Assembly (NCBI GenBank): GCA_949293555.1
Contig: CASFDV010000003.1
Coordinates: forward strand, 7,614-71,613
Source of the DNA: an uncultured Bacillota bacterium
GTDB lineage: Bacteria; Bacillota_I; Bacilli_A; RFN20; CAG-826
Direction of reading: 5' to 3'
DNA length: 64,000 bases
In this document: positions 23,514 through 60,793 of the stretch, piece by piece
How positions within the stretch are numbered: the first letter of the stretch is position 1
How the letters are laid out: each line of letters starts with the position of its first letter
Translations under genes and position numbers: made by a program
Notes under the pieces: generated by a model
What the model was told of the DNA's origin: nothing
The model's input: the letters and a program-made list of their open reading frames with translations, nothing else
Database searches by the model: none

Positions 23514-24518
23514 ATGCCAGCGATCATCACCCATTACGCCTTCGCCCTCGGGGCGATGGAGAGGAAGGACCGCGCTCCTGAGGAGAAGGAAGCCCTCCTC
23601 GTCGGCGCCCAGGGGCCCGACCCCTTCTTCTTTTTCGGCCAGCGCCCCTGGCTCCGCCGCCATAGCAGGGAGGAGGTCACCTCCTTCGGGCACGAACTCC
23701 ACCACGTCGACCCCACCGACTGCTACTTCCTCATGATGGACGAGGCGCGGAAGGAGGGGGACGAGAAGGCGAGGAGGATCCTCTTCTCCTACCTCGAGGG
23801 GCTCTTGCTCCACTACTCGCTCGACCGGAACTGCCACCCCTACGTCTGGAGCCGCTGCGGCTACGGGCGGACTCCGGAGGAGAAGAAGGAGTGGGGGGCG
23901 AGCCATACGTGGCTGGAGACCCTCATCGACCGCGTCTATGGCGGGGAGAAGGGCGTCTTCACCATCCACGCGGACAAGTACCTCGCGCTCGACTATCGCT
24001 CCGCCTCTCTCATCGGCGCCCTTTGGGCGAAGGCGAACGACGCCACGCTAAGGAAGGAATCCTTCGATGAGAACTCCTTCCTCCTTTCCCTCGTCGACTA
24101 CCGGGCCATCATGCGCCTGACGAACGTCCCCCACGGCTGGAGCCGCTTCCTCACGCGTCTGATGGGGAAGAAGTCCGTCCCCTTCCGCATGAACCTTCCG
24201 ATCCGCCTCAAGCCAGAGGAGGAGGCTCTCGACGTCATGAACGAGAGGCACGCCATGTGGCGCGACCCCGTCATGGGCCATCACCGGAGCGAGTCGCTCC
24301 ACGAGCTCATGGGGAAGGCGGAGGAGGACTACAAGGTCGCCCTCGGGATCCTCAAGGACGCCTTCGAGGGGAAGGAAGGCGCCAAGGAAGCGCTCCGGCG
24401 CTTTTCTCACGGCCTCGACCACGACGGCTACCGCCCGAGCGAGAAGCTCCTCTACATGAGCCCGATCTGGCCCGGCTCCCGGGAGAGGGCCCCCAAGGAC
24501 GAGAGAAAGGCGGGATGA
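23514..24518 (+). CDS. Zinc-dependent phospholipase C-like family protein
   Basis: The N-terminal ITHYAFALGA/His-rich pattern is typical of the Zn_dep_PLPC family. ATGA overlap with the cardiolipin synthase gene. Confidence 0.5.
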   Translation: MPAIITHYAFALGAMERKDRAPEEKEALLVGAQGPDPFFFFGQRPWLRRHSREEVTSFGHELHHVDPTDCYFLMMDEARKEGDEKARRILFSYLEGLLLHYSLDRNCHPYVWSRCGYGRTPEEKKEWGASHTWLETLIDRVYGGEKGVFTIHADKYLALDYRSASLIGALWAKANDATLRKESFDENSFLLSLVDYRAIMRLTNVPHGWSRFLTRLMGKKSVPFRMNLPIRLKPEEEALDVMNERHAMWRDPVMGHHRSESLHELMGKAEEDYKVALGILKDAFEGKEGAKEALRRFSHGLDHDGYRPSEKLLYMSPIWPGSRERAPKDERKAG

Positions 24519-46776: not shown

Positions 46777-47829
46777 ATGGAACGGGAGCGACCTTCTTTC
46801 TACAATTGCCCTATGGAAGAAAGGCTTCCCACCTACATCGCCCAGTGGACGATGGTCCTCCGGGGCATGCAGGTGGACAACACCTACAAGTGCGCTTGGG
46901 CCCGTGCAATCCTTTCCTGCCTCGGGAAGGGACGCTTCATGCAACTTCCCCCTGACGGGAAGGCGATGCTCCATTTCTCCGACATCGCCAAGGAGATGGT
47001 GAGGCTCTACTGGAACCAGACCTGCTTCTTCCACCTCCGTCAGGCGCCGGAGAAGAGAGGCCAGAGGGGTGCGCTGATCGTCTCCTACGTCGAGGACCTC
47101 ATCGAAAGCTACTATGCGCTCCTCGGGACCAGGAGGCCCTCCTGGTGGAGCGAGGCGGAGCCTCTCCTCAAGGAGGAGAAGGGGCTCCTCGAGAAGACGT
47201 TCCGCGAAGTCGGGAATGTCCTCCCCCAGAACGTCGCCCATCGCTTCCTGAACCTCAAGGGGAGGAGGGACCCCCTGCCCCTATACGAGTACCGGAGGCC
47301 CGAGAAGGCTATCTATTTCGCCTCCTGGCAGGTCGGGCTCCTCATCTCCTTCCGCGAGCTCCTCGAGGATGAGGTCGACCTCCGCTGGGCGGAGATCCTC
47401 GAGAGGTTCAACGGATCGCCGAGGATTGCGAGGAAGGTCGTCGCAGCCTCGAACGAGGAGCTGAGGAGAGGAAGCCTCAAGGAGTTCAAGGACGTCATCC
47501 AGGACGCCTACCGCCGGGTGAGGATCCCTGATTTCTACGAGGAAGGGTCCTATGTCCCTCTCGACGACTTCTCCCTCGACCACGTAATCCCGTGGAGCTA
47601 CCTTTACTCCGACGACATCTGGAACCTCGTCCCGACGAGGAAGGGGAATAACTCCGCGAAGGGGGACTCCCTCCCGGGAAAGGAGGACATCGTCCGCCTC
47701 AAGAGGAGGAACCAGGACCTCCTTCCCCGCCTCAGGGGGATGAAGGGGATGGAAAAGCACGTGGGCGCCCTCCTTTTCGCTGAGGAGAACCATCTCGTCG
47801 ACCTCTACTACGGGGGATGCCTCCTGTGA
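46777..47829 (+). CDS. HNH-endonuclease-domain protein (351 aa) with an uncharacterised N-terminal region
   Basis: C-terminal HNH motif DHVIPWSYLYSDDIWNLVPTRKGNNSAKGD. Start at MERERP, which has a GGGAG RBS. Confidence 0.55.
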   Translation: MERERPSFYNCPMEERLPTYIAQWTMVLRGMQVDNTYKCAWARAILSCLGKGRFMQLPPDGKAMLHFSDIAKEMVRLYWNQTCFFHLRQAPEKRGQRGALIVSYVEDLIESYYALLGTRRPSWWSEAEPLLKEEKGLLEKTFREVGNVLPQNVAHRFLNLKGRRDPLPLYEYRRPEKAIYFASWQVGLLISFRELLEDEVDLRWAEILERFNGSPRIARKVVAASNEELRRGSLKEFKDVIQDAYRRVRIPDFYEEGSYVPLDDFSLDHVIPWSYLYSDDIWNLVPTRKGNNSAKGDSLPGKEDIVRLKRRNQDLLPRLRGMKGMEKHVGALLFAEENHLVDLYYGGCLL

Positions 47830-48383
47830 GCGGCTTCTACGAGGAGAACGCGGAGTTCTACGTCCAGGGCACCTTCCATCTCGACATGGAGGGGACGAGG
47901 AGGAAGTTCCTTTCCTACGTCCCCGAGGGAGGGAGGATCCTCGACCTCGGGTTCGGGTCGGGAAGGGACATGCTCGCCTTTAGGGACGCTGGCTACCAGG
48001 TGGTGGGGATCGACCCCTGCCTTCCTTTCGTCCGGAGAGCAAGGTCCCTGGGGATGGAGGCGCTCGCCCTAAGGGCGGAGGACATGCCCTTCGTAAACGA
48101 GTTCGACGGAATCTGGGCCTCTGCCTCCCTCCTCCATTCGGAGGATCTCCCGAAGGCCCTGGGGAAGTGCCATAAGGCCCTTAGGGAAGGAGGGGTCCTC
48201 TACTGCTCCTTCAAGAAGGGAAGCTTCCGGGGGATGAGGGACGGGAGGTTCTACGCCGACATGGAGCCCTCCACCTTGGAGCAATCCCTGAAGATAGCGG
48301 GTTTCTTCCCTCTTTCGGTATGGACAAGCGAGGATTCCCTTAGGCCGGGCCTCTTCTGGACGAACGGGATGGCCCGTAAATAG
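47817..48383 (+). CDS. Small class I SAM-dependent methyltransferase
   Basis: Motif I ILDLGFGSGRD. No DPPY/NPPF DNA-methyltransferase motif. Overlaps the HNH gene by 13 nt. Confidence 0.65.
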   Translation: MPPVSGFYEENAEFYVQGTFHLDMEGTRRKFLSYVPEGGRILDLGFGSGRDMLAFRDAGYQVVGIDPCLPFVRRARSLGMEALALRAEDMPFVNEFDGIWASASLLHSEDLPKALGKCHKALREGGVLYCSFKKGSFRGMRDGRFYADMEPSTLEQSLKIAGFFPLSVWTSEDSLRPGLFWTNGMARK

Positions 48384-48439
48384 ACATTCGTTATACATTA
48401 AAAAAATTCCGATGAAATCGTCGTTTTTTGCACGTCATC

Positions 48440-48505: not shown

Positions 48506-50692
48506 ATGGCGGAGACGAATCTTCGAGACGTGCTCGGTCTTGGCCATGACTATTCGAATACGCCAGACACCCCTATCGCGGATTACGTTTTGAATCCGTG
48601 CCTCAGGGAGGCTAAGTCCTTCGACGCCCTATTCGGCTTTTTCTCAAGCGAGTCCTTGATTGCGATCTCTCCCGGGCTGGAGACCTTCTTTTTCCATGGA
48701 GGGAAGATCCGCCTAGCGATATGCGCTTTCGTCAAGAAAGAGGACGTAGCGGCTATCCAAGAAGCCTACGAGGACAAGGAAAGATTCCAGGCGTCTTTTT
48801 CCGAAGCCGAGAAGCGTCTGCTGAAGGAACTCAGGAAGGCCGCCGAAGAGAACCCTGACTCCGTTTCCTTGCTCCGCGAGATGATTGCGGCGAATCGGTT
48901 GGAAATCATAGCCGTCGGACCCTATATGTCGTCGGGCCTGATGCACCAGAAGATCGGAGTATTCGAAGATTCGCATGGGAATTGCGTATCTTTCAGCGGA
49001 AGCTCGAATCTTACCGGAAGCGCGATCACGAGTATCAAAGGGGTGTGGAACTATGAGGACCTCAAGGTGTTCCGGTCCTGGGAAGTTGGAGAAGACAAGT
49101 ACTGCTTTTCCGATAGGAAGAAAGTCCAGGCCGCGTTTTCGGGTGAGGATCAATGGCTCGAACGAAGGGAGCTTAGTGCGATTGTCAGGGAATGCATTGA
49201 TTCCATCCCTGCCGTCTCGCTAAAGCGAAGCTCAGCAAGCGTTCCTTCGTCTGGGCAATCTTCAAGCGTTAAAGAGGATATAGGGGTTGGCTATCTATAC
49301 GACTATCAGAGAAGTGCCGTCGACAGGTGGTTTGAGATGGGTTGCCGTGGCTTCTTCATGATGGCGACTGGCACAGGGAAGACGAGGACGGCACTGGCCG
49401 CGGTCAAGGAATATTGGGAGAAGGGGAGGAACGCCATTGTTGTGGTCGCCGTCCCTCTTCTGGCCCTGGCCGACCAATGGGAAAGGGAGATTGAGCATTG
49501 GCTAGGCGTTCGGCCGATCATGTGCAATTCAAAGAACCCCCAGTGGCGAGAGGAGGTGCAAAGCGCCTTGTCCGGAAGGAGGTTCCGCAACAAGGACGCA
49601 AGGACGGTCCTCTTGGTCACGTACCACTCTAAGAAAAAACTTGAAGCCCAGCTTCGAAACTACCCTAGCGAGAAGTGCCTTCTTCTTGCCGATGAGGCTC
49701 ACCACATCGATCCCGATTGGCTTGAGCAGGCGAAATTCTTCGGCCCTTGCATAGGCTTGAGCGCCACCCCCGGGACGGGAATGCCCGGGGACGAGCTTGG
49801 TCCGCGGATCATCAGGGACTTCGGAGGACTCGCTATCTCCTTGTCGCTTGAGGAAGCTCTCGAGAAGGGCGTGCTTGTTCCATATGACTACTACCCGCTC
49901 TTCTGCCATCCCAACGACAAGGAAGAGGAGAAGTTCCGTCACTACACGCAGCTTATCGCCGCGGCCCTTCAGAGTTCCGATCCGAAGAAGAAGGAAGATT
50001 GCTCTAGGCTTATTCGCCTTCGTTCCCAGGTCGTTGCCAATTGCAGTGACAAGATTTCGCGCCTTGGCGAGTTTATTCAATCTGTAGCGAAAGAAGATCT
50101 CGACCATCTGCTTGTCTATTGCGGAGCGGGGGACATCTATGGCGGAAACATTGCCGAGGAAGAACGCTTCATCTCCTTCGTTCATAAGAAGCTGAAGGAA
50201 ACGTTGCCATGGCTGATCGTCTCCCCGTTCACCAGCCGCGAGGATAAGGTCGAGCGGACTTTGATTTTGAGAGGATTTCAGGAAGGGACGATCAACGCCA
50301 TAACTGCGATTCGCTGCCTAGACGAGGGAATCGACCTTCCCTCTATCCGTGCCGCCCTTATTCTCGCAAGCGGTTCGACTCTTCGGGAGTTCATCCAGCG
50401 GAGGGGCCGAATCCTTCGTCTTTCGAAAGAGACGGGCAAGGATCATGCCTCAATCTATGACGTGGTTTGCCTCCCCCAAGGTGCGGACTGTCAGGCCCTG
50501 GCCCGTTACGAGCTTAGGCGTTTCTATGAGTTCGCTAGGAGCGCTAGAAATTGGGAGATGGGCCTTAAGGATCGTTTGGAACATTACTTGGTTCATTACG
50601 GTCTTGGGACTATTGAGGAAGCCTTCTTTGGCAAGGAGGACGATTTCGTGATGGAGAAGATACAGATGGAAGGAGACGAAGCGGATGCCTAG
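48506..50692 (+). CDS. PLD-family (HKD) nuclease domain fused to an SF2 DEAH-box helicase
   Basis: N-terminal HKD motif LMHQKIGVFED...SGSSNLTGSA. Helicase motifs MMATGTGKT (I), LLADEAHH (II) and QRRGRILR (VI). RBS GGGAGG before the MAETNL start. Confidence 0.75.
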   Translation: MAETNLRDVLGLGHDYSNTPDTPIADYVLNPCLREAKSFDALFGFFSSESLIAISPGLETFFFHGGKIRLAICAFVKKEDVAAIQEAYEDKERFQASFSEAEKRLLKELRKAAEENPDSVSLLREMIAANRLEIIAVGPYMSSGLMHQKIGVFEDSHGNCVSFSGSSNLTGSAITSIKGVWNYEDLKVFRSWEVGEDKYCFSDRKKVQAAFSGEDQWLERRELSAIVRECIDSIPAVSLKRSSASVPSSGQSSSVKEDIGVGYLYDYQRSAVDRWFEMGCRGFFMMATGTGKTRTALAAVKEYWEKGRNAIVVVAVPLLALADQWEREIEHWLGVRPIMCNSKNPQWREEVQSALSGRRFRNKDARTVLLVTYHSKKKLEAQLRNYPSEKCLLLADEAHHIDPDWLEQAKFFGPCIGLSATPGTGMPGDELGPRIIRDFGGLAISLSLEEALEKGVLVPYDYYPLFCHPNDKEEEKFRHYTQLIAAALQSSDPKKKEDCSRLIRLRSQVVANCSDKISRLGEFIQSVAKEDLDHLLVYCGAGDIYGGNIAEEERFISFVHKKLKETLPWLIVSPFTSREDKVERTLILRGFQEGTINAITAIRCLDEGIDLPSIRAALILASGSTLREFIQRRGRILRLSKETGKDHASIYDVVCLPQGADCQALARYELRRFYEFARSARNWEMGLKDRLEHYLVHYGLGTIEEAFFGKEDDFVMEKIQMEGDEADA

Positions 50693-50894
50693 GCGTGAGG
50701 ATAAAAACGAAGTCAGCCAGGCCGCTGCAGCCCAATTGCGCGAGGGCGCTTTGTCGGAGGCGAAAGATATTCTTGCCTCTCCGCAGGTCAACCTCAGCAT
50801 GAAGAAAGCAGCAGCCCAGAAGCTTTATCAGACGGCTCTCAAGCTTGCAGAAGTCGAGCTCGCAAAAGAGGAGGACTCTGTGGATGCTGATTGA
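50685..50894 (+). CDS. Small (69 aa) predicted helical protein, translationally coupled between the helicase and ATPase genes
   Basis: AAGGAG RBS. Its ATG overlaps the upstream TAG stop, and its own stop overlaps the ATPase start. Confidence 0.45.
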   Translation: MPRREDKNEVSQAAAAQLREGALSEAKDILASPQVNLSMKKAAAQKLYQTALKLAEVELAKEEDSVDAD

Positions 50895-52959
50895 GAAGGT
50901 CTGGGCGGAGAATTTTAGAAACTTCCGTAAGTTTGGAAGGCGCGACCGCCCAATTCGTTTTAATACTGACGGCAAAGTCAACTTGATTTACGGGAAATCC
51001 GGCTTTGGGAAAAGCACTATCCTTCAGCTTCTCCAATGGATTCTCTATGGAAGATGCGAGTTTTCTGAAGACGATCTGGTCAACAGCGGGGTTAGGAAGG
51101 ACGCCGATATTGGGTCCGATGTCACTCTGTACGGGTCTTTGACCATCTTGGTGGATGGGATTCGTTATTACATTCAACGTCGTTGGCTATTCTTGAAGCA
51201 GCCCGGTGGCGGTTTGCGCAGGAAGAAGAAAAAGGATAAGAACGACCAAGAACACCCTGAAGAGTATTTCACTATTGAGAAAGAGAACCCCGATGGGAGC
51301 GCCACGCCGATTCAAGGCGAGAAAGGGGATGAGGGGCGGGAGTTTATCGATCGAATCATGCCCCAGGGGCTTGCTGGCTACTTCTTCTTTGACGGCGAAC
51401 AGTTCATAGATCGGTTTGAAGACAGCAAAAACTCAAATGGGAAGAGACTGAAGGAAGCGATCGCGACCTTGTTTCAAACGGATGTTTATAACGTTGCGAA
51501 AGAACTTCTTTCAGGATCTGCGTGGTCGGTTTCGGGCATGTTGGATAAAGGGCTAAGCGAAGCGAGATATTCCGGCTTCAAAGGCCTGGAAGAGGCTCGC
51601 GAGGCTGAGGAGCAAGCAAAAAACTCTTTTCACAGGGCGGAACAGATGTGCGAATTGCGGAGGCAGGAAGCAAAATCCGAACAGAAAGAGATGCTTGTCC
51701 TTTCCGAAACGCTTAAGGACATCCCTAACCAGGAAGATTTGAAGAGGCGGATTAACGATTTAGAGAAGGAACAGGAGTCGTTGCGGAGGCAGTATGACGA
51801 CCTTCTTCTTAAGATTGCCGCTTCTGCTAGGTCCCATTTCATGTCCTTTGCCGTTGCCAAGAATGTCGTTGATGCCGTAAGGATGAAACCGGATGAGATT
51901 GGCGACCAGGAAGTGCCGGCCTCGTTGACCAAAGAACTTATTGAATGCCTAGAGGAAAAGGAAGAATGCATTTGCGGCCACCGTATTGGGAAACTGGAGA
52001 GAGAGCAGTTGGAACGATGGCTTACAGCGCTCCCTCCAGCATCCTATCGACCGACATACGATTCTTATCTCGAGCGGAAAGACTCAGCAGTGGAGCATGA
52101 ATTGGAGCGGGGATTCCGCGACTTGCACAGCCTCGTGGAGGAACTGGTCGCCAAAGAAGAACGAATTAGAGTCTTGGCCAACAAGCTCAAGGAGGCCTGG
52201 GAGCGGCAGCGGGCGGGTTTTGATGCCGATGCCGAAAGCAAATGGAAAAGGCTAAGGGCGCTTCAGGAGAAAGTTAAAAAGACCAACGATTCTATTGGTG
52301 AGTTATCTGCGGAGGCCGATCGAAAGAAACACATCTGGGAAGCGGCAAGGAAACGTTTTGATGAGGCCTTAAGGCAGGCGAACATCGCCCGAAAGGAGCG
52401 CTATGCCCTTTCGTTGTCCAACGAGGTCGCCGAGCTTTTTGAAGCACTCGCCAAGCAACGTACCTTAAATGTCCGAACGGATCTCCAGCAAGCGATCGAA
52501 GAGTACCTCAACAAAATCCTTGTAGGAGCCGTAAAGACCGCTGAGCTAAGCGAGGATTTCAAGCTTACGATCCGCGAGGGGGATATCACTTACAAGTCGA
52601 GAGGCCAGGCCGCAGTCGCCTGCTATAGCTATGTCCTTGGCATCCTCGCGGTTCTTAAGCGTTTCCGGGATCGCCATGAGGATGACATCCTTGACCTCTC
52701 CGACGAATACCCACTTGTCATCGACGCCCCTTTCAGCGAGACCGACAGGGAGCAGACCCTGCATGCCCTTTCCTATTTCCGTGAGATTCCTAAGCAGATT
52801 GTCCTTATGTCCAACCGCGACCTGAACGACATGGTCGAAGAAGTGGACGCGGGGACCATCTATGTCATTAAAGGCGTAGGGGTGGACGCCTTCATCGAGG
52901 AATGCTCTTACGAGGATGTGGATCGCTACTTTGCCGAGGGTGGCGAGAAGGAGGACTAG
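50884..52959 (+). CDS. SMC/RecF-like AAA ATPase (AAA_23-type N-terminal Walker A with coiled-coil middle), DndD paralogue-like
   Basis: VNLIYGKSGFGKSTILQLLQWILYG P-loop, a long coiled-coil, and C-terminal Walker B/D-loop (LVIDAPFSETD). RBS AGAGGAGGA. Confidence 0.7.
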   Translation: MLIEKVWAENFRNFRKFGRRDRPIRFNTDGKVNLIYGKSGFGKSTILQLLQWILYGRCEFSEDDLVNSGVRKDADIGSDVTLYGSLTILVDGIRYYIQRRWLFLKQPGGGLRRKKKKDKNDQEHPEEYFTIEKENPDGSATPIQGEKGDEGREFIDRIMPQGLAGYFFFDGEQFIDRFEDSKNSNGKRLKEAIATLFQTDVYNVAKELLSGSAWSVSGMLDKGLSEARYSGFKGLEEAREAEEQAKNSFHRAEQMCELRRQEAKSEQKEMLVLSETLKDIPNQEDLKRRINDLEKEQESLRRQYDDLLLKIAASARSHFMSFAVAKNVVDAVRMKPDEIGDQEVPASLTKELIECLEEKEECICGHRIGKLEREQLERWLTALPPASYRPTYDSYLERKDSAVEHELERGFRDLHSLVEELVAKEERIRVLANKLKEAWERQRAGFDADAESKWKRLRALQEKVKKTNDSIGELSAEADRKKHIWEAARKRFDEALRQANIARKERYALSLSNEVAELFEALAKQRTLNVRTDLQQAIEEYLNKILVGAVKTAELSEDFKLTIREGDITYKSRGQAAVACYSYVLGILAVLKRFRDRHEDDILDLSDEYPLVIDAPFSETDREQTLHALSYFREIPKQIVLMSNRDLNDMVEEVDAGTIYVIKGVGVDAFIEECSYEDVDRYFAEGGEKED

Positions 52960-53484
52960 ATGAACAACAGCCAGCCAATTTCAAGTTCCATCGTCCTTTA
53001 TGGCGCACCTTGGCATGAGGCCAGGGCAAAGTTTTGCCAAAACAAAGGGAACGGCATCCTCTTCGAGACTGCCGCCGAGCTGTTCATCTTTTGCTCGGCG
53101 ATAGGGGTGCGAATCGGCTCTCCGACCGAACAATTTCCACCGGATGAGGAAAACCCGCAAGGCGTCGAGGTTCCTTATACGGTCCTTGAGCGGCCAAAGA
53201 ACAAGGATTTTCTTAGCGACCTCTACGCGACTGTTTTGTTTAACCGGTGGATTGAACCAAAAAAGACAGACATTCAGCGTCTGGAGGTGATTTTCGAGAA
53301 GGGTGCTCCCTCTGACCGCCACAAGATCCTTGAGCCCTATGCGCGGACAGGGGTCCTCCACCTTCTCGAATACACGAAGGACTTTGTGAAGGAATGGCCC
53401 CTCATTGAACGAGTGTGGTCGGATCTTGCGGAACTCTACGAAGAACCGCGCATCCTTGGAGGGGAAGATTCTTCAGAGGAATGA
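52960..53484 (+). CDS. Hypothetical 174-aa protein of the defence operon
   Basis: ATG lies immediately after the ATPase stop codon. Its stop overlaps the dndC start (ATGA). No recognisable motif; weak resemblance to DndE only. Confidence 0.5.
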   Translation: MNNSQPISSSIVLYGAPWHEARAKFCQNKGNGILFETAAELFIFCSAIGVRIGSPTEQFPPDEENPQGVEVPYTVLERPKNKDFLSDLYATVLFNRWIEPKKTDIQRLEVIFEKGAPSDRHKILEPYARTGVLHLLEYTKDFVKEWPLIERVWSDLAELYEEPRILGGEDSSEE

Positions 53485-54860
53485 CGATGACAGAGGATGG
53501 TCGCCTTTCCGTCTTTTCGTCCGTCCTCGAGGACATGGAGAGGGTGTACCTCCACGACCAGAGGCCCTGGATGATCGGCTATAGCGGGGGCAAGGACTCC
53601 TCTCTTTTGACGATGCTCGCCTTCGAGATGCTCCAGAAGATCCCGGAAGGCAAGCGTTGGAAACCGATATACGTGGTTTCCAGCGATACTCGCCTTGAGA
53701 ACCCGGTCGTCTCCCTCTACATGCATGCGTCCAACCGGAAGATCGGACGTTACGCCCATGAAAACAATCTCCCGGTCATCTCGGAAATCATCTATCCCAA
53801 GGACGAAGAGACGTTCTGGACCCTCGTGATCGGGAAAGGCTATCCGACCCCGGAGCCTCCGGGGTTCCGCTGGTGCACCGAGCGTTTGAAAATCAATCCG
53901 ATGAACCGTTTCGTCGACGGGATCATCCAGGAGCATGGCGAAGTCGTCATCCTCCTGGGAGTCCGCAAGGGCGAGTCCGGGACGAGGAAGAGGAGCATCG
54001 AGTCCCGCGAGATCGAGGGGCGGCTTCTCCAGCATCACGAGACTCTCCCCAAGGCGTGGGTATTCAATCCTCTCACGGAGGTCCCTAACGACCTTGTCTG
54101 GCCCTATCTCCTGAAAGGGGATGGAATCGCCCCTTGGGGGACCGACCTTAAGAAGCTTTACGCGATGTATCGCGGGGCCGACCTTTCCGAGGAGCAGTCC
54201 GTGATCGGGCAGGTCGACATCTCGAACATGCCGGTCACGGGGAACAGCCGCTTCGGGTGCTGGTGCTGCACCATCGTGAAGGAGGACAAGTCCCTCGCGA
54301 ACTTCATCGCGAAGGGCGCGAACGAACTCGCTCCTCTGAGGGATTTCCGGAACTGGCTCGTCTCGATCCGGCAGGACCCCGCCTACCGGGAGAAGCATCG
54401 GGCGAACGGGAAGGTCTACAGGAAATCGGACGGGGAAGTCGGGCTTGGCCCTTTCACCCTGGACGCGAGGGAGGAGATCCTGCGGAGGCTTCTCGCCCTT
54501 CAAAAGAGGACCGGCTTCTCGCTCATATCGGAAGGAGAGCTCCGCCTCATCGATCGCGCCTGGGAGGACGAGGGGGATTTGTCGCGCCGGCGCCTTGTGG
54601 ACGCCTACCGTGACGTCATGGGGAAGAAGCTTCCATGGGACGAGGAGAAGCGCGCCCTGATGGACGAGGATTTCCTCAGGGAGCTTGAGGATTTGTGCGA
54701 TAGGAACGGCCTTCCGTTCGAGGCCATCGGGAAGGTCCTCATGGCGGTCGAGAAGGGGAGGGTCGGGAAGACCAGGGATGCCCTCCGCAAGTCTGCGAAG
54801 AGAATTCTTTCCCAAGAGTATCTCCATCAGGACGCGCTGAGGGAGGGGGAGGAAGCATGA
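53481..54860 (+). CDS. dndC: DNA phosphorothioation protein DndC (PAPS-reductase-like PP-loop ATP pyrophosphatase)
   Basis: PP-loop motif MIGYSGGKDSS, conserved NSRFGCWCCT cysteine motif, about 460 aa. Directly followed by dndD and dndE. Confidence 0.8.
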   Translation: MTMTEDGRLSVFSSVLEDMERVYLHDQRPWMIGYSGGKDSSLLTMLAFEMLQKIPEGKRWKPIYVVSSDTRLENPVVSLYMHASNRKIGRYAHENNLPVISEIIYPKDEETFWTLVIGKGYPTPEPPGFRWCTERLKINPMNRFVDGIIQEHGEVVILLGVRKGESGTRKRSIESREIEGRLLQHHETLPKAWVFNPLTEVPNDLVWPYLLKGDGIAPWGTDLKKLYAMYRGADLSEEQSVIGQVDISNMPVTGNSRFGCWCCTIVKEDKSLANFIAKGANELAPLRDFRNWLVSIRQDPAYREKHRANGKVYRKSDGEVGLGPFTLDAREEILRRLLALQKRTGFSLISEGELRLIDRAWEDEGDLSRRRLVDAYRDVMGKKLPWDEEKRALMDEDFLRELEDLCDRNGLPFEAIGKVLMAVEKGRVGKTRDALRKSAKRILSQEYLHQDALREGEEA

Positions 54861-56953
54861 AGATTCTCGCCGCGGAAATCGAAAACTTCGGCCCCTACGT
54901 CGGGCGCACCCGCTTCGACCTTTCTCCCGAAGGGACCATCCGCAGGATTGTGCTTATGGGAGGGAAGAACGGAGCGGGCAAGACGACTTTCTTCGAGTCG
55001 CTCCGGCTTGCGCTTTACGGTCCGAAGGCGTTCGGCCTTGCCGTCAGGAACGCCAAGTACGGTAAGAAAGTCGCCTCCCTCGTCAACAAGCGCGTGCTCC
55101 GGGAAGGGAAGGCGCGGGCCTCGGTCGCCGTTTCCCTTCGCCTTGAGGACGGGAACCATGAGAACGGATCCTATCGGCTCGATCGTTCCTGGGAAATCGA
55201 GGGCAAGGACGTCAGGGAAACCCTCAAGGTGTCCTTCAAGCCGGATAACGGGGACGAGAGGCTCCTTGGCAGGGAAGAGGAACAGGACTTCGAGATGACG
55301 CTTGAGTCCCTCTTGCCCTTGTCGCTTTTCCCGTTCTATTTCTTCGACGGGGAGAAACTCACGGACTTCTTTCTGGACGGCAAGGGCTTCCGCGAGACCT
55401 TGATCGCGATGACCGGGCTGGAGAGCCTCGACATGCTCGTCTCGATCCTTGGCGACCTCGCGAAGAAGGAGGGGAGGGCGAAGGACGCCGGGAGGCGGTT
55501 CGAAAAGGCGGAGAAAACCTATCTTTCCCTTAAGTCGAAATGGGATGCCCTCCGCGAGGAACGGGATGCCCTGAAAGAGGAAATCGAGAAAAAGGAAGAG
55601 GATTTCCAGGAATTTCAGAAGGAATTCCTTAGAAAAGGAGGCCTTTCCGTGAAGGCAAGGCGCGCCCTTGAGAAAGAAATAGAGCATGAGACGGAAGAAA
55701 GGGAGAGGAAGCGCGTGGAGCTCAAGGCCTTTGCGAACACGCATCTCCCTCTCCTCATCATGGAACGACAGGTGCGGAAGGCGCTTGAGGGGGCCGATTC
55801 CTCCCGTTCCGCCTTCCTTGTCCGGGAGATCAAGAAGGCCGCGGAGGAGCGAGGGGTCCTCCCTCTTATTTCCGAGCAGCTCGGTCCCGAAGGACTCGAC
55901 GGGCTCCTTAGGTCCATCTTCGGGGAGGAGGCGCTCAAGGGGGAAGGCGCAGGCTTCTACCGCCCCTCGCCGGAAGAACTTTCTCGCATTCATGAGCAAT
56001 TGGCGGAGGCTAGGTCCGCCGACCTTGGCTATTTCAAGGCGATCGAGGAAGACATCTATGGCTCCATGTCGATGCAGCGGGGGATACGGGAAAGGCTCAA
56101 AGGAGTTTCCGAGGAAGGAGAGAGGGCGCTTGAGAAAGAGCGGAAGGAACTGGAGAAGTTCCGCTTCTCTGTCCTGAGGAAGATCAGGGAGAAAGAAGAT
56201 TCCCTGGAGGCGCTCCTTCCCGATTTCCTTAAGGCGGAGGCGGAATATCGCTCGGCTTCCAAGGAGAGGGACGACCGGCTGAGGGAAGAGTCCGCGCACA
56301 GCCTTGCCGCGAAGGCGCACCTTGTCCTCGCGGAGTTCGAACGCCATCTTTTCGCGAAGCAGGTGGATCGGCTGAAGGACTCCTTCCTCTCCATCTTCTC
56401 TTCGATCATCAACAAGGACGGCCTTGTCGACGGGCTTGAAGTCGATTCCATGCTCCGCGTCTACCCCGTTCTTTCCGAACAGGTATCCCTGGGGGAGATG
56501 GCGCGCCTCCGCGAGGAGCTGGGAGAAGCCGAGTTCGAAGAACGATACGGGGAGGCTGCCCTTTCCATGACCTATCTTGAGATGGATGAAGAACAGGTCC
56601 GGATGCCACTCAAGGTAAGCGGGATGTCCGCCGGGGAGAGGCAGGTGTATCTATTCGCTCTCTACGGGGCCCTTGCCACGATCGCCGACCACCGGATGCC
56701 CTTCCTCATCGATTTCCCGTTCGGCCGGGTCGATACCGTCCACCGCATGGGCATGGTGGACCATTTCTTCCTTTCCCTTCCCGGGCAGGTCGTCATCCTT
56801 TCGACGGACGAGGAGGTGCAAGGGGCGCTTCTGGAGGAGATGGACCCCTTCATCGCGAGGTCCTACACGATCGAGAGCAAGGGGGACGGGACTAGCCGCG
56901 TTCTCGAAGGCGTCTACTTCGGGAAGGAGGTTCCTTATGGGAAACAGGCTTAG
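54857..56953 (+). CDS. dndD: DNA sulfur modification protein DndD (SMC-like ATPase)
   Basis: Characteristic N-terminus MKILAAEIENFGPY...IVLMGGKNGAGKTTFFESLRLALYGP, long coiled-coil, C-terminal ABC signature/Walker B (GMSAGERQ, PFLIDFPF). ATGA overlap with dndC. Confidence 0.85.
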   Translation: MKILAAEIENFGPYVGRTRFDLSPEGTIRRIVLMGGKNGAGKTTFFESLRLALYGPKAFGLAVRNAKYGKKVASLVNKRVLREGKARASVAVSLRLEDGNHENGSYRLDRSWEIEGKDVRETLKVSFKPDNGDERLLGREEEQDFEMTLESLLPLSLFPFYFFDGEKLTDFFLDGKGFRETLIAMTGLESLDMLVSILGDLAKKEGRAKDAGRRFEKAEKTYLSLKSKWDALREERDALKEEIEKKEEDFQEFQKEFLRKGGLSVKARRALEKEIEHETEERERKRVELKAFANTHLPLLIMERQVRKALEGADSSRSAFLVREIKKAAEERGVLPLISEQLGPEGLDGLLRSIFGEEALKGEGAGFYRPSPEELSRIHEQLAEARSADLGYFKAIEEDIYGSMSMQRGIRERLKGVSEEGERALEKERKELEKFRFSVLRKIREKEDSLEALLPDFLKAEAEYRSASKERDDRLREESAHSLAAKAHLVLAEFERHLFAKQVDRLKDSFLSIFSSIINKDGLVDGLEVDSMLRVYPVLSEQVSLGEMARLREELGEAEFEERYGEAALSMTYLEMDEEQVRMPLKVSGMSAGERQVYLFALYGALATIADHRMPFLIDFPFGRVDTVHRMGMVDHFFLSLPGQVVILSTDEEVQGALLEEMDPFIARSYTIESKGDGTSRVLEGVYFGKEVPYGKQA

Positions 56954-57314
56954 GACGTCCCTTCATACGAAGAAGGTGTTCGACGAGGTGAGGAACATCA
57001 GCCGCCTCCAGCCGTTCGCTCTTTCGAAGATCGCCCTCGCCTTGTCCATTCGCATGGAAACCCCCTTGTCGGAGGAAGACTTCAAGACAGATAACGAGGG
57101 GCTTGAGCTGGCAAGGGAAACCGTATGCGGACCGTATGATTCCCTCTTTTCCATGGTCGTGTGCGAGGACGCTGGGAAGGCGATCGCGGACTCGGAAATC
57201 TTCTCCACCTATTTCAAGGCCCATATCGACCGGGGCGCGAAGGAACTGGAGAAGGAGTTCCGTTACGACAAGAGGCTTTTCCGTCGCCTCATCGGCCTGA
57301 AGGATTCGATCTAG
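56937..57314 (+). CDS. dndE: DNA sulfur modification protein DndE
   Basis: 125 aa, immediately downstream of dndD with a 17-nt overlap. RBS GGAAGGAGG. Sequence pattern ISRLQPFALSKIALALSI...FKAHIDRG is typical of DndE. Confidence 0.7.
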   Translation: MGNRLRTSLHTKKVFDEVRNISRLQPFALSKIALALSIRMETPLSEEDFKTDNEGLELARETVCGPYDSLFSMVVCEDAGKAIADSEIFSTYFKAHIDRGAKELEKEFRYDKRLFRRLIGLKDSI

Positions 57315-57381
57315 CACTGCTTTGATATCGCCTTTTCAATACAAGGCAAATCAACGTATCTACGGTTTTTTATAACTAAAC

Positions 57382-57420
57382 TCCAGAAAATCCGGAATGC
57401 AATTCCAGAAAATCCGGAAT
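57382..57420 (+). repeat. Two direct copies of TCCAGAAAATCCGGAAT (22-bp period) flanking a GGAATGCAATTCC palindrome
   Basis: Copies at 57382-57398 and 57404-57420, immediately after the dnd operon and before a truncated gene. Confidence 0.7.
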
Positions 57421-57432
57421 TCAGTCCTTTTC

Positions 57433-57948
57433 CTAGAGGAAGAGGAACGCCTCGGCCTGGAGGGCGAGTAGCCCTATGAGGAGGGCGGGCACCGCGACCA
57501 TGAGGCCTTCCCTCGTGAAGCGAAGGAAGGTGAGAGGGGCCCCTTCCTCCCTTACCTTCTGGAGGAACATGAGCCCAGCAAGGGCCTCGAAGGGGGTGAG
57601 ATAGGCGGCGAGGTTCGAGGAAAGGATGACCGCGTAGGGGGCAAGGGCCTCGTAAGGGGCGGACAGGAACACTTCCTCGAAGAGGACGGACATGGGGATG
57701 TTGTTCATGAGGTTCGCCAGGAGCATCGACCCGAGCCCGTGGCTCCAGATCGAATAGCCCTCCTGGTTCAGGTTCCCCGCGAGGAGGGAGGTGATCCCCT
57801 GCTCGTCCAGGGCAAGGACGACGACGAACATTCCGAGGAGGAGGGGGAGGAGGGAATAGGGAAGCCTCCCGCTGGAGAAGGGCCTGACGCTCCCCTCGAT
57901 CGACCTCGGCTTCCTGGAGGTGGGGTCCACCACCTTCTTCTGGATCAT
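57433..57948 (-). pseudogene. C-terminal fragment (171 aa) of an ArsB/NhaD-family permease; N-terminal part missing and replaced by lgt on the opposite strand
   Basis: Only the C-terminal hydrophobic segments are present. The ORF start overlaps the lgt start region. Confidence 0.4.
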
Positions 57949-58651
57949 CGGGATCCTGATGACGGTGCCCTTCTACTCCTACTTCGCCCCTAAGGTGGGT
58001 ATATCTAGACCCTTGGGGATCCTCGTCGGGCTCCTCATCGTCATCCTCGAGGCCTTCGGGGCGAAGATCCTTTTCTTCATCGAAAACCCCTCCTCCCTCG
58101 GGGACGGGGTGAGCTGGCTCGGGGGCTTCTCCCTCTTCGGGGTGTTCCTCTTCTCTCCTCTCTTCCTCGTCCTCGTCGCCCTTTTCCTCAAGAGGGACGT
58201 CCTCTCCTTCCTCGACTACTACGCGCCCGGGATCCTCATCGAGCTCGCCTTCTACCGGGTGGGGTGCACCCTCGCCGGGTGCTGCCGGGGGATCTACGTG
58301 GGCTGGGGGATCTCGGACGGGAGGACGGACGGGCTCTTCCCCGTCCAGCCCGTCGAGATCGCCCTCGACCTCCCTCTCTTCGCCTTCCTCCTGTTCCTGA
58401 TCCTCCGGAAGGACGCCTTCTCGAGGAAAGGGCTTCTCCTCGGCGCCACGTTCCTCGGCTACGGGGCGATCCGCTTCGCCCTGGAGTTCGTCCGGGAAAG
58501 GACGAACATCCTCTGGGAGCTCTCCCTTTCCCACGTCTGGGCCTTGATCACGATCCTCGCGGGCGCCCTTTTCCTCCTCCTTTCCCTTTGGAAAGGGAAG
58601 AAGGCCGGGAAAGAAGGGGGCAAGCCCTCCCTTTCCGACGTAAATCGTTAA
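57920..58651 (+). CDS. lgt: Prolipoprotein diacylglyceryl transferase
   Basis: Polytopic membrane protein carrying the Lgt signature GYGAIRFALEFVRE. Confidence 0.8.
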   Translation: MGSTTFFWIIGILMTVPFYSYFAPKVGISRPLGILVGLLIVILEAFGAKILFFIENPSSLGDGVSWLGGFSLFGVFLFSPLFLVLVALFLKRDVLSFLDYYAPGILIELAFYRVGCTLAGCCRGIYVGWGISDGRTDGLFPVQPVEIALDLPLFAFLLFLILRKDAFSRKGLLLGATFLGYGAIRFALEFVRERTNILWELSLSHVWALITILAGALFLLLSLWKGKKAGKEGGKPSLSDVNR

Positions 58652-58774
58652 TCTTTCTCCGGAAACCCCCTTTCTGCAGGGATTTCCCGCGCCCATCCGC
58701 GAATTCCTTGCAAAGCGTTCCTTCCCTCCTTTACGATGAAGTCGCCCCAAGGGGCCATCAAGGAGGTGCCTACC

Positions 58775-60793
58775 ATGAAGAAAAGGCATATCGCCCTCGC
58801 CCTCGCCCTCGCGCCGATGCTGGCGCTCGTCTCCTGCGACACCACCTCTTCCTCCTCCGATCCCATAGGAAGCGGTTCGGAAGGGACCTCCCAGTCCAAC
58901 GGGGAAGGAGAGACCCCCGTCGGAGGGGGAGAAGGATTCCACGTCGAGGAAGGGATCCCCGACAAGAAGGGGGACATCACCGAGGAGGCCTTCCTCGCCT
59001 TCACGGCGGAAGTCGCTTCCGCCATCACGGGGGAGGAAATCCCCGACCCCTCCCTCGAGGACATGCCCGAGAGCTTCCTCCCGACCCTCTCCAAGGGCGG
59101 CTGGACGGACGCGCTCCTCGAGGACATCGCCCCCGTCCTCACCTCGGAAGGCGCCGTCTCCCTCATCCAGTCCGTCATGATGGCTTCAAGCGGCATGCCC
59201 ATGGATCCCACGATGATCCCCGGGATGGTGGGCCAGGCCTACGACGTCCTGGGCGAGCTCCTGCCCATCGTCGACGAGGACCAGTTTGCCGCTATCCTCG
59301 TCGCGGGCTTCTCCACCTGGACCGTCTCCGCGGGCACGAGCGCCCCCCTCTTTGCCTTCGGGCTGAACTACGAGAACCAGGAGGAGGTCCTCGAGGTCGC
59401 CAAGGAAGACCCGGCGGCCCTCGCCTTCTTCGAGGGAGTGATCGAGCGCTCCGACTACGGGGTCGATCCTTCCGTCTACGAAGGCTGGAACGAGGAGACG
59501 GAGGAGCTCCTCTGGATGGCCGGGAGGACCGTCTACGGAGTCCTCTCCGCGATCATCGAGAACTTCGAGAAGACGGAGCTCGCCTCTCTCGTCGATAGCA
59601 TCCTCGCCCTCACCGCAACCACGTCCGGGGCCGCTCCTTCCGCGGAGGACGTCCTGGCTCTCCTCCACGGGGCGGGGAAGATCCTCCTGAACTGCCTCCC
59701 CGACGGGGAGTCCCTCTCCCTTCTCTTCGGGAAGGTCGCCGCGCTTCCGAGCATGAGCAGGGGATGCTTCGAGAACGAGGTTCTCGTCCACGGCTACTGG
59801 GGCGGGAACGTCTGGAACGAGGACCCCCTGACGGGGCTTCCCCCTCTGGGAGGGGACTTCCGGACCCTCCTCACCCTCCTCGGGACGATGCTCGAGAACG
59901 CCGAGCTCGAGCACGCGGAGGCGATCCTCGCCTTCGCCGAGGCGAGTACCTCCACCGACCCCGCGGCGATGGAGGCGATGACCGGCGCGATGGTCTCCCT
60001 CTCGAAGCTCTACGCCGAGGCCCTCGGCCTCATGGGGGACAAGGCGGACGAGGTCGCTCCTGCCATCGAGTCCGTCCTCTCCTTCGCCCTCGGGCAGGAT
60101 TCCTACGAGACCCAGAGCTCCTCGAGCGGGGATTCCTATGAGTTCCAGATCACCAAGACCACGAACGCGCTCGACAAGGAGGCCCTCGCCTCGCTCCTTG
60201 ATGCCATCGAGCTCATGGCGGACCTCGACATGGAGAACCCCGACCCCGACCTGATGTTGGAGATCTCCGCGGCGATGGAAGCCGCCTCCGCCCTCGCCAC
60301 GAGCGAGAGCGAGACCTACCTCCTCGCCTACGAGGAAAGCGGTCCTGTCGGGGAGAGCTACCCCGCCCCGACGGTCAGCAAGGTCAGTGAGGCGGGCGAG
60401 ACCCCGGTCGAGCACGTCCTCTCCGGGATCGACACGTCCGCCCCGGGGCAGGGGCTCGCGACCATCACGTTCGAGGACATCGAGTTCCTGTTCCGCTACG
60501 AGGTCAGCGACATCGACCGGAAGGTCTCCTACCTCGAGCTCCGGCATGAGAACGGCTACTTCTCGAGCGACGTGTCCAAGACGCTGGCCCTCTCCCCGGA
60601 CATGGGCTCCATCCAGGAGATCTCCTACCGCACGACGGACGGGGTCTCCGTCGCCGTCCCCGTCGAGGACCTGATCGGCTTCGACCTTTCCGTCCCCGAA
60701 GGGATCTTCATCCTGCCTCTAAGCGAGGAGGGGGCTTCCCAGCCGAGCGAGTACCGCGCGGTGCCCTACGTCGTCCTCAGCGAGGAAGCGTAA
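58775..60793 (+). CDS. Acidic surface lipoprotein (672 aa), hypothetical
   Basis: RBS AAGGAGG. Lipobox in MKKRHIALALALAPMLALVSCDT. Confidence 0.7.
   Translation: MKKRHIALALALAPMLALVSCDTTSSSSDPIGSGSEGTSQSNGEGETPVGGGEGFHVEEGIPDKKGDITEEAFLAFTAEVASAITGEEIPDPSLEDMPESFLPTLSKGGWTDALLEDIAPVLTSEGAVSLIQSVMMASSGMPMDPTMIPGMVGQAYDVLGELLPIVDEDQFAAILVAGFSTWTVSAGTSAPLFAFGLNYENQEEVLEVAKEDPAALAFFEGVIERSDYGVDPSVYEGWNEETEELLWMAGRTVYGVLSAIIENFEKTELASLVDSILALTATTSGAAPSAEDVLALLHGAGKILLNCLPDGESLSLLFGKVAALPSMSRGCFENEVLVHGYWGGNVWNEDPLTGLPPLGGDFRTLLTLLGTMLENAELEHAEAILAFAEASTSTDPAAMEAMTGAMVSLSKLYAEALGLMGDKADEVAPAIESVLSFALGQDSYETQSSSSGDSYEFQITKTTNALDKEALASLLDAIELMADLDMENPDPDLMLEISAAMEAASALATSESETYLLAYEESGPVGESYPAPTVSKVSEAGETPVEHVLSGIDTSAPGQGLATITFEDIEFLFRYEVSDIDRKVSYLELRHENGYFSSDVSKTLALSPDMGSIQEISYRTTDGVSVAVPVEDLIGFDLSVPEGIFILPLSEEGASQPSEYRAVPYVVLSEEA

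Follow-up and report, generated by a model that had tools for sequence, protein, structure and literature searches.

An open reading frame at positions 48506 to 50692 of the window (the whole 64,000-nucleotide stretch of DNA that was analyzed) raises the question of what is done by a protein that joins a PLD-family HKD nuclease to an SF2 helicase, and of how unusual such a fusion is. An earlier note on this DNA had read both domains in one polypeptide and considered the combination unusual. The open reading frame is a single frame of 728 amino acids (stop codon, 50690 to 50692), its ATG at 48506 is preceded by a Shine-Dalgarno-like stretch (GGGAGAGTGGGAGG), and it lies on the forward strand, as do its domains and the neighboring genes described below. 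Every motif string quoted in the earlier note is present: LMHQKIGVFED (residues 145 to 155; 48938 to 48970), SGSSNLTGSA (residues 164 to 173; 48995 to 49024), the Walker A sequence ATGTGKT (residues 287 to 293; 49364 to 49384), DEAH (residues 396 to 399; 49691 to 49702), and QRRGR (residues 631 to 635; 50396 to 50410). Pfam, a profile of the N-terminal region, and Foldseek agreed that an HKD phosphodiesterase domain precedes a complete SF2 helicase in the same chain. The AF2 model of the full-length protein had a pLDDT of 85.8.

Two PADLOC models for PbeA matched the protein, PDLC02707 with an E value of 1.1e-157 over residues 12 to 684 of the 728 and PDLC02704 with an E value of 5.3e-145. The NCBIfam model TIGR04095 (dnd_restrict_1, "DNA phosphorothioation system restriction enzyme") matched the helicase part only (residues 264 to 686; E = 1.5e-94), with a score of 317.6 bits against an equivalog cutoff of 600, which makes the protein a relative outside the NCBI threshold. 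Identity to matches in species-representative genomes was approximately 26 to 34%, the best match reaching 34%. The PbeA architecture was described in 2019 as PLD, ResIII, and Helicase_C domains (PMC6459918), and an account from 2024 of systems centered on a CxC ABC ATPase gave it as a fusion of an HKD endoDNase with an SF2 helicase (PMC10853773). The same domain order is found in the solved structure of SauUSI (7CLG) and in the families modeled by NCBIfam NF042964 and PADLOC "PLD_Helicase." The fusion is thus a published one, matched from end to end, rather than an unusual one. We conclude that the product of 48506 to 50692 is a further member of PbeA, a family already known to provide the effector in PbeABCD/DndCDE, a DNA-phosphorothioate system directed against viruses.

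Classical helicase-nuclease restriction subunits had been said to carry the two domains in the opposite order. This is correct for Res in the Type III enzymes but not for Type I HsdR (EcoR124I) or Type ISP enzymes (LlaBIII), in which the nuclease lies N-terminal to the motor. DISARM DrmC and Zorya components, which had been suggested for comparison, proved not to be the closest relatives: no DrmC or Zor model was found among the 24 PADLOC hits with E values of ≤0.01, and the neighbors of the gene are Pbe and Dnd genes, unlike the operon partners in DISARM and Zorya.

The nuclease domain spans approximately residues 12 to 235 (48539 to 49210), as delimited by profile and Foldseek matches, and has a single HKD half-site and a helical insert at residues 78 to 128. 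Its catalytic motif (48944 to 49057) was identified from conservation among homologues and alignment to PLD nucleases and reads H147-x-K149-(x)5-D155, G165-S166-x-N168, and N182-x-E184. The HKD site that the earlier note had described is therefore real, but its spacing is HxK(x)5D rather than HxK(x)4D, with one extra residue between the lysine and the aspartate. Apart from this extra residue, the PLD-superfamily signature HxK(x)4D(x)6G(S/T)xN and its downstream acidic residue are present, in the form of H147-Q-K149-(x)5-D155, G165-S166-S-N168, and N182-Y-E184. H147, K149, S166, N168, N182, and E184 were invariant in 105 full-length PbeA homologues, and D155 was kept in 101 of them. Such invariance argues for retained activity. 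When all six frames of the window were searched with a regular expression for the extended HKD motif, two matches were obtained, compared with none in 30 shuffles; the other match lies in an ordinary two-HKD, cardiolipin synthase-like open reading frame at 24257 to 26077. The HKD motif match in PbeA is not due to chance.

More sensitive comparisons supported the PLD assignment. With the isolated N-terminal region, Pfam PLDc_2 gave an E value of 2.5e-4 and 21.3 bits, under the gathering score of 27, and PLDc_2 was absent from the Pfam list for the full-length protein at E values of ≤0.01; many full-length PbeA homologues carry the precomputed annotation PF13091. A single-sequence phmmer search of the PDB with residues 1 to 265 returned only noise (tubulin and USF2), so that an alignment profile was needed. 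The profile of the N-terminal region matched four solved PLD nucleases, Zucchini (4ggj; 3e-5), NucT (6ehi; 1.2e-4), SauUSI (7clg; 1.4e-3), and Nuc, with the motifs in register, and the HxK, GSxN, and NxE residues aligned with those of Zucchini, NucT, and SauUSI. An AF2 model of residues 1 to 255 (pLDDT, 85.1) was matched by Foldseek to SauUSI (6.6e-8), NucT (2.5e-6; TM score on the target, 0.65), and BfiI (2.6e-5), in line with the suggestion that the region be compared with Nuc/BfiI-type nucleases. The top of the Foldseek list consisted exclusively of PLD-superfamily folds, with E values of ≤3.3e-5 for SauUSI, NucT, BfiI, and PLD. The N-terminal domain is thus predicted, on the basis of this model, to have the PLD alpha/beta fold, and the PLD identity stands, since the region does align to PLD proteins by both profile and fold.

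Residues 1 to 260 contain only one HxK, as expected from the single half-site in the earlier note. To judge from Nuc, BfiI, and above all SauUSI (PMC7913695), a single half-site implies that PbeA would dimerize to form one catalytic center. The possibility that the N-terminal domain is a pseudo-dimer with a degenerate second PLD half was considered and rejected, because the model consists of one 8-stranded sheet plus the helical insert; the alignment to single-half nucleases, with TM scores on the target of 0.65 for NucT and 0.63 for BJ-TSA-9, also speaks against it.

A serine-rich linker at residues 238 to 260 (49217 to 49285) connects the nuclease to the motor and is predicted to be disordered, with a pLDDT of <50 in both AF2 models; an equivalent linker, also unstructured, occupies residues 192 to 220 of SauUSI (PMC7913695). 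The SF2 helicase/translocase core follows at residues 264 to 690 (49295 to 50575), with a Q motif, ATGTGKT, DEAH, SAT, and QRRGR recognized from Pfam and profile matches. Pfam matched ResIII (9.7e-20), Helicase_C (2e-8), and also DEAD, and a profile search of the PDB matched archaeal XPB/Rad25 (5.9e-58). The SF2 motif residues were invariant in the homologue alignment; judged by its motifs, the XPB/ResIII-like ATPase core is intact. The C terminus was modeled as short helices only (663 to 708) and a disordered acidic tail, and neither Pfam nor the AF2 model revealed a C-terminal target recognition domain (SRA or DUF3427).

PbeA is the first gene of a tightly packed array, pbeA-pbeB-pbeC-pbeD-dndC-dndD-dndE (48506 to 57314), in which starts and stops overlap or abut. 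The ATG of pbeB (50685 to 50894; 69 amino acids) overlaps the pbeA stop. PbeB was recognized by position, having no curated model and no match in PADLOC or Pfam; genes of 65 to 69 amino acids were called at the same position in three related loci (L001, L002, and L003), and PbeB of the founding system has 66 amino acids (PMC6459918). The start of pbeC (50884 to 52959; 691 amino acids) overlaps the pbeB stop, and its product is a CxC-type ABC/SMC-like ATPase (PADLOC PbeC, E = 8.5e-54; Pfam AAA_23) with a C-I-C motif at residues 362 to 364 in the coiled-coil region; a CxC Zn-hook has been described for PbeC (PMC10853773). Directly after the pbeC stop begins pbeD (52960 to 53484; 174 amino acids), which likewise has no curated model and no Pfam or PADLOC match and was identified by its position and by a custom HMM built from position-equivalent open reading frames of 19 distant loci (E = 7e-8). 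Although PbeD has been called a DndE cognate (PMC10853773), BLASTP of PbeD against DndE of the window detected no similarity (E = 0.25).

The Dnd genes follow directly. An ATGA overlap with the pbeD stop leads into dndC (53481 to 54860), which encodes a PAPS reductase-like sulfurtransferase (TIGR03183, 6e-112, above the cutoff; PADLOC DndC, 4.8e-123). It is followed by dndD (54857 to 56953), coding for an ABC/SMC-like ATPase (TIGR03185, 1.1e-94, scoring 318 bits where the cutoff is 245.85) in which no CxC motif was found, and by dndE (56937 to 57314; 125 amino acids; Pfam DndE, 9e-17, above the gathering score; PADLOC DndE, 5e-9). No dndA or cysteine desulfurase gene was found in the operon or, by a crude active-site motif search, in the window, and phosphorothioation in the source organism is therefore assumed. 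A scan for promoters and terminators yielded promoter-like sites at or under the shuffle expectation. Gene order is identical in L001, L003, and L006. Of 85 loci, at least 49 have PbeC after PbeA, and DndC was found within 10 kb in only 34. The best explanation for the open reading frame, and in our judgment a highly probable one, is that it is pbeA and encodes the motor-nuclease subunit in a PbeABCD module arranged head to tail with dndCDE in one operon.

Two further genes lie upstream of pbeA. The first (46813 to 47829) encodes an HNH_4 endonuclease, called in databases as 338 amino acids (Pfam HNH_4, 8.9e-8), with no Pfam match in its N-terminal 270 residues. The second (47817 to 48383) overlaps the HNH stop and encodes a small class I SAM methyltransferase of 188 amino acids (Methyltransf_11, 5.8e-15; PADLOC mad2, 2e-14). 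A hairpin with a T-run (48410 to 48429) separates the methyltransferase gene from pbeA. The HNH gene adjoins pbeA in L001 to L005, and the methyltransferase gene is conserved in these loci and in L042. Directly upstream of pbeA, with the gene order swapped, the pair was observed in relatives with PbeA identities as low as 47%. The pair was considered as a component of the system itself, but this view was not adopted, because outside the close clade the HNH family occurs in unrelated defense island contexts; the HNH gene of L001, an 81%-identical relative, is moreover broken by a TAG codon. The HNH gene is probably a separate unit from the Pbe-Dnd system.

GC3 was much lower in the pbeABCD cassette than in dndCDE. 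Between the window and L001, PbeB is 67% identical and DndCDE are 96 to 97% identical. It is conceivable, though we consider it doubtful, that the Pbe-Dnd operon in this clade has acquired the HNH-methyltransferase pair as a fixed accessory; the pair could then be an extra module with an effector or regulatory role in phosphorothioate defense. Separately, and with the same doubt, the low-GC3, faster-diverging pbeABCD cassette may be exchanged en bloc, with dndCDE as the stable core.

The closest known counterpart of the locus is the founding DndCDEA-PbeABCD system of Haloterrigena jeotgali A29 (DVR14_03960; Xiong et al. 2019, PMC6459918), which has the same PLD, ResIII, and Helicase_C PbeA, followed by a PbeB of ∼66 to 69 amino acids, a CxC-type ATPase PbeC, and a PbeD of ∼150 to 175 amino acids, physically linked to dndCDE. 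The founding system is haloarchaeal, whereas the genome of the window tentatively appears to be bacterial, judging by neighboring genes of bacterial type. The window also differs in its co-directional, translationally coupled pbeABCD-dndCDE array, in having no dndA in the cluster, and in the HNH and methyltransferase genes upstream.

In structure, the best match of the whole PbeA model was SauUSI (Foldseek, E = 1e-22, 757 columns), an ATP-dependent Type IV enzyme of Staphylococcus aureus with the same order of single-HKD PLD domain, linker, and SF2 motor (PDB 7CLG). SauUSI dimerizes via its PLD domains, which pre-forms one active site, and couples cleavage to translocation (PMC7913695). However, SauUSI is equipped with a coupler and, at its C terminus, an SRA-type domain for recognition; it works by itself, and the DNA it cuts is modified (5mC/5hmC). 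PbeA, by contrast, is devoid of a recognition domain, depends on PbeBCD, and would presumably leave modified (phosphorothioate) DNA intact; identity is ∼13 to 15%. Nuc (1BYR), NucT (6EHI), Zucchini/MitoPLD (4GGJ), and the BfiI nuclease domain (2C1L) share with PbeA the fold, one HKD half-site per chain, and aligned catalytic H, K, S/N, and E residues, but lack a motor domain. The PbeA nuclease domain is larger (∼225 amino acids compared to ∼155 in stand-alone PLD nucleases) because of the helical insert, and has the HxK(x)5D spacing. CglI/NgoAVII (PLD R subunit and SF2 H subunit) and DISARM DrmC also combine a PLD nuclease with an SF2 ATPase in defense (PMC7913695, PMC6459918); unlike in PbeA, nuclease and motor are on separate polypeptides. 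NF042964 ("phospholipase D-like domain-containing anti-phage protein") matched residues 24 to 357, spanning both PLD and helicase parts (E = 4.5e-12). Proteins of NF042964 and PLD_Helicase have the PLD-then-helicase order of PbeA but are ∼900 amino acids long with extra C-terminal regions, and with a PbeA score of 45 bits against a cutoff of 1100 they represent at most a sister family.

Taken together, PbeA is most likely a dimeric, ATP-driven translocating nuclease directed against DNA without the host phosphorothioate mark, while sensing or regulation would fall to PbeB, PbeC, and PbeD. Host DNA would be marked with phosphorothioates by DndCDE together with a cysteine desulfurase encoded elsewhere. 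PbeA would pair through its PLD domains into a homodimer in which two HKD half-sites compose one metal-independent catalytic center, on the model of Nuc, BfiI, and SauUSI. ATP hydrolysis by the SF2 motors would drive translocation on double-stranded DNA, and the nuclease would nick or cut DNA lacking the mark. Since PbeA has no recognition domain, loading and the distinction of self from non-self would depend on the PbeC-PbeD pair, acting as ATPase and DNA-binding components, and the small PbeB may be a regulator. In the founding system, phosphorothioate-dependent antiviral activity needs all four pbe genes (PMC6459918), and cleavage of DNA by the HKD nuclease has been predicted (PMC10853773). 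A literature search did not find biochemistry of any PbeA.

The founding study saw no cleavage in vivo and proposed inhibition of replication (PMC6459918). The motor might accordingly stall or remodel the replication of unmodified viral DNA, with the HKD domain serving as a clamp for DNA or phosphate. Southern blots in which SNJ1 viral DNA was undegraded while its replication was inhibited, and the low-level resistance kept by pbeBCD without pbeA (PMC6459918), are in accordance with such blocking. However, nicking or limited cutting could escape a Southern blot, as has been argued (PMC10853773), invariant H, K, S, N, N, and E residues in 105 homologues from many phyla are hard to explain without catalysis, and SauUSI, the closest solved relative, is a bona fide ATP-dependent endonuclease (PMC7913695). 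We therefore regard blocking without cleavage as rather unlikely, though more plausible than the other alternatives. One of these, offered in PMC10853773, is abortive infection: PbeA, freed once infection is sensed, would cut host and viral DNA alike, and the phosphorothioate mark would serve assembly or regulation rather than self-protection. The many genomes in which CxC-centered systems occur without Dnd genes, as reflected in a nearby DndC being found in only 34 of 85 loci, and the rapid evolution of PbeB, the proposed trigger or regulator, would fit such a suicide effector. In the founding system, however, phosphorothioate-modified virus escaped restriction and deletion of dndCDEA caused no growth defect (PMC6459918), which fits self/non-self marking better than suicide, and the translational coupling of pbeABCD and dndCDE in one operon points the same way. 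Abortive infection thus seems improbable.

The remaining two alternatives concern the identity of the protein. Both the whole protein and the N-terminal domain have SauUSI as their top structural match, and PADLOC mREase_IV models matched weakly (7.7e-6), as if PbeA were a stand-alone, modification-dependent Type IV enzyme that merely sits beside dnd genes. This is very unlikely, given that PbeA stops at residue 728 after only a short stretch of helices plus an acidic tail, no SRA or DUF3427 being detected, that the mREase_IV models trail the PbeA HMMs by ∼150 orders of magnitude, and that pbeA is translationally coupled to pbeB and pbeC. To the idea that the HxK arose by chance in an N-terminal region other than PLD, for which the empty single-sequence PDB search and the subthreshold PLDc_2 score could be cited, we give practically no credence: it is refuted by the profile matches to four solved PLD nucleases and the Foldseek matches to PLD structures, together with the invariant motif and PF13091 on the homologues.

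The finding is a modest addition to what is known. An unannotated gene of metagenomic type is now securely assigned to PbeA, and the pbeABCD-dndCDE operon has been documented, complete and with translational coupling, in what appears to be a bacterium. Whether Pbe systems cut DNA is a question that predates this finding, and the argument that they do runs contrary to the original report of no cleavage; the invariance of the HKD residues in 105 diverse homologues, together with the nature of SauUSI as a translocating endonuclease, strengthens that published argument.

The frame at 48506-50692 (+) begins downstream of a Shine-Dalgarno-like, purine-rich stretch with an ATG at 48506 and continues for 728 codons to its end at 50692, so that the coordinates in the earlier note were correct. 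All of the motif strings quoted in that note were located in the product: LMHQKIGVFED (residues 145 to 155) and SGSSNLTGSA (residues 164 to 173) in the N-terminal part and ATGTGKT (residues 287 to 293), DEAH (residues 396 to 399), and QRRGR (residues 631 to 635) in the helicase part. PADLOC PbeA models matched end to end (PDLC02707; E = 1.1e-157; residues 12 to 684), and NCBIfam TIGR04095, "DNA phosphorothioation system restriction enzyme," matched the helicase part (E = 1.5e-94; 317.6 bits, below the equivalog cutoff of 600). On these sequence matches, the gene is pbeA, the first gene of a tightly packed operon. When the whole window was translated in six frames, an extended HKD regular expression had two matches; it had none in 30 shuffles. 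The second match was in a cardiolipin-synthase-like open reading frame with two HKD motifs and a PLDc_N domain at 24257-26077 (+) (PLDc_2, E = 4.5e-35), the product of which looks ordinary in kind and provides an internal contrast to the single-HKD PbeA.

The N-terminal region of PbeA aligned to PLD-family proteins in profile searches, as the earlier note had proposed. Pfam PLDc_2 matched residues 103 to 192 (E = 2.5e-4; 21.3 bits, below the gathering score of 27), and a single-sequence search of the PDB with the N-terminal region yielded no match. A profile built from 22 PbeA N-terminal domains and searched against the PDB aligned the HxK, GSxN, and NxE residues in register with those of solved PLD nucleases, with matches to Zucchini/MitoPLD (4GGJ; E = 3e-5), NucT (6EHI; E = 1.2e-4), SauUSI (7CLG; E = 1.4e-3), and, weakly, Nuc (1BYR). 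PbeA homologues were collected (n = 601), and 105 full-length sequences among them were aligned; all 105 had H147, K149, S166, N168, N182, and E184, and D155 was kept in 101. Almost all significant Foldseek matches in the PDB to an AlphaFold2 model of residues 1 to 255 (mean pLDDT, 85.1) were PLD-superfamily structures, including the SauUSI nuclease domain (6.6e-8), NucT (2.5e-6), BfiI (2.6e-5), bacterial and human PLDs, phosphatidylserine synthase, and Tdp1. The predicted structure is a single half-site, as had been claimed, with one eight-stranded sheet and a helical insert at residues 78 to 128. HxK occurs once in residues 1 to 260, and exactly one HxK was also found in 86 of the 105 aligned homologues.

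In the full-length model (pLDDT, 85.8), a Ser-rich disordered linker (residues 238 to 260) is followed by two RecA-like lobes. Every SF2 motif of this motor is invariant across the full-length alignment, its closest profile match is archaeal XPB/Rad25 (E = 5.9e-58), and Pfam recognized ResIII, DEAD, and Helicase_C. At the C-terminal end are a few helices and a disordered, acidic tail, and no target-recognition domain was detected in PbeA. Elsewhere in the window, 8888-11809 (+) encodes a 973-aa helicase IV/UvrD-like protein (NCBIfam NF008276; E = 2.6e-84) with a C-terminal stretch resembling topoisomerase I zinc-ribbon/SWI regions (NF004966; E = 4.6e-11).

The ATG of pbeB (50685-50894; 69 aa) overlaps the pbeA stop. 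It is followed by pbeC (50884-52959; PADLOC PbeC, E = 8.5e-54; C-I-C motif at residues 362 to 364) and pbeD (52960-53484; 174 aa), which was recognized with an HMM from the equivalent open reading frames of 19 distant loci (E = 7e-8). The modification genes are dndC (53481-54860; TIGR03183 above cutoff), dndD (54857-56953; TIGR03185 above cutoff; without CxC), and dndE (56937-57314; Pfam and PADLOC DndE). The same pbeABCD-dndCDE order was found in loci with PbeA identities of 81% (L001), 47% (L003), and 34% (L006, a Lachnospiraceae metagenome-assembled genome [MAG]), and by tblastn, which is insensitive, at least 49 of 85 loci have a PbeC homologue after PbeA. Neither the cluster nor the region after dndE contains dndA or another cysteine desulfurase, and thus a housekeeping cysteine desulfurase is assumed to serve. 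Long open reading frames at 57311-58942 (-) and 58736-60793 (+) had no Pfam or NCBIfam match. When the region after dndE (57314-58567) was compared with that of L001 (18791-21207), a Na/sulfate-symporter-family gene was found after dndE in L001, within a stretch of ca. 1.9 kb whose counterpart in the window is only ca. 0.7 kb; the difference is an indel.

In addition to many bacterial phyla, PbeA homologues were found in archaea, among them Methanobrevibacter, Methanocellaceae, and Woesearchaeota. Cyanobacterial matches (L045, L047, L050, L052 to L055, L057, L061, L063 to L065, L067, L071, and L072) start at residue 264 and cover only the helicase, which fits the TIGR04095 model with its 451 positions; these genomes either lack the HKD domain or encode it separately.

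Directly upstream of pbeA are overlapping genes for an HNH_4 endonuclease (46813-47829) and a small class I SAM methyltransferase (Methyltransf_11; 47817-48383; PADLOC mad2-like, E = 2e-14), separated from pbeA by a hairpin and T-run at 48410-48429. The pair is also upstream of pbeA in L001 to L005, relatives down to 47% PbeA identity (L001, 8225-9870; L003, 8162-9789), with its order swapped in the 47% clade. A similar methyltransferase precedes pbeA in an Eremiobacterota MAG. The L001 HNH gene has an in-frame TAG at an Arg codon position (9005-9007), just before the HNH motif, and was called as two genes (234 and 103 aa), which suggests that HNH is dispensable there, or the TAG may be an assembly error. 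The HNH_4 family (ca. 305 to 340 aa) was found in varied, unrelated defense islands (L086, L087, and L088/L089), often adjoining the gene for a small enzyme, which is NUDIX in Vallitalea and HIT in a Bacillota MAG; the Vallitalea homologue also adjoins a 972-aa PLDc_2-helicase-DUF3427 protein of the SauUSI type. Because of the TAG and this scattered distribution, the pair was treated as a neighbor of the Pbe-Dnd system rather than a component.

GC3 was 0.57 to 0.65 in pbeABCD (48506-53484), compared to 0.76 to 0.81 in dndCDE (53481-57314) and 0.82 to 0.84 in upstream genes. Identity between the window and L001 was 81% for PbeA, 67% for PbeB, and 78% for PbeC versus 96 to 97% for DndC, DndD, and DndE. 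These comparisons suggest that the restriction cassette evolves or exchanges faster than the modification genes.

DndCDEA-PbeABCD provides phosphorothioate-dependent protection against a haloarchaeal virus, for which all four pbe genes are required, and the viral DNA was reported not to be degraded (Xiong et al. 2019; PMC6459918). According to a 2024 reappraisal, PbeB is a small protein that evolves rapidly, PbeC is an ABC ATPase of the CxC type, and PbeD is cognate to DndE; it also argued that the mechanism must include cleavage (PMC10853773). In the most likely mechanism, a PbeA dimer would join two HKD half-sites into one center, with SF2 motors that translocate along double-stranded DNA and a nuclease that nicks or cuts DNA lacking the phosphorothioate mark installed by DndCDE. 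Since PbeA has no recognition domain, loading and discrimination would come from PbeC-PbeD, and PbeB would act as a regulator. It is possible that PbeA is instead a suicide effector (PMC10853773). The main alternative to cleavage, a non-cleaving block of replication by the Pbe system, was proposed from Southern-blot data, but the HKD residues do not vary across phyla, which speaks against their role being purely structural. No PbeA biochemistry was found in the literature searched.

The opposite order that the earlier note attributed to classical restriction subunits applies to Type III Res but not to Type I HsdR or Type ISP enzymes, in which the nuclease is N-terminal. The PLD profile and predicted fold and the SF2 core confirm that the fusion is real. 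However, it is not unusual or novel, because the architecture has been published and the same order solved: PbeA was defined as PLD (pfam13091) plus ResIII plus Helicase_C (Xiong et al. 2019; PMC6459918) and later described as "the HKD endoDNase fused to a SF2 helicase module" (PMC10853773), and the solved structure of SauUSI, the top structural match for both PbeA models, has the same PLD-linker-SF2 order. SauUSI dimerizes via its PLD domains, preforming one catalytic site, and ATP hydrolysis drives translocation (PMC7913695). The PbeA of the window adds to an already described family in which neither the architecture nor the order is new.
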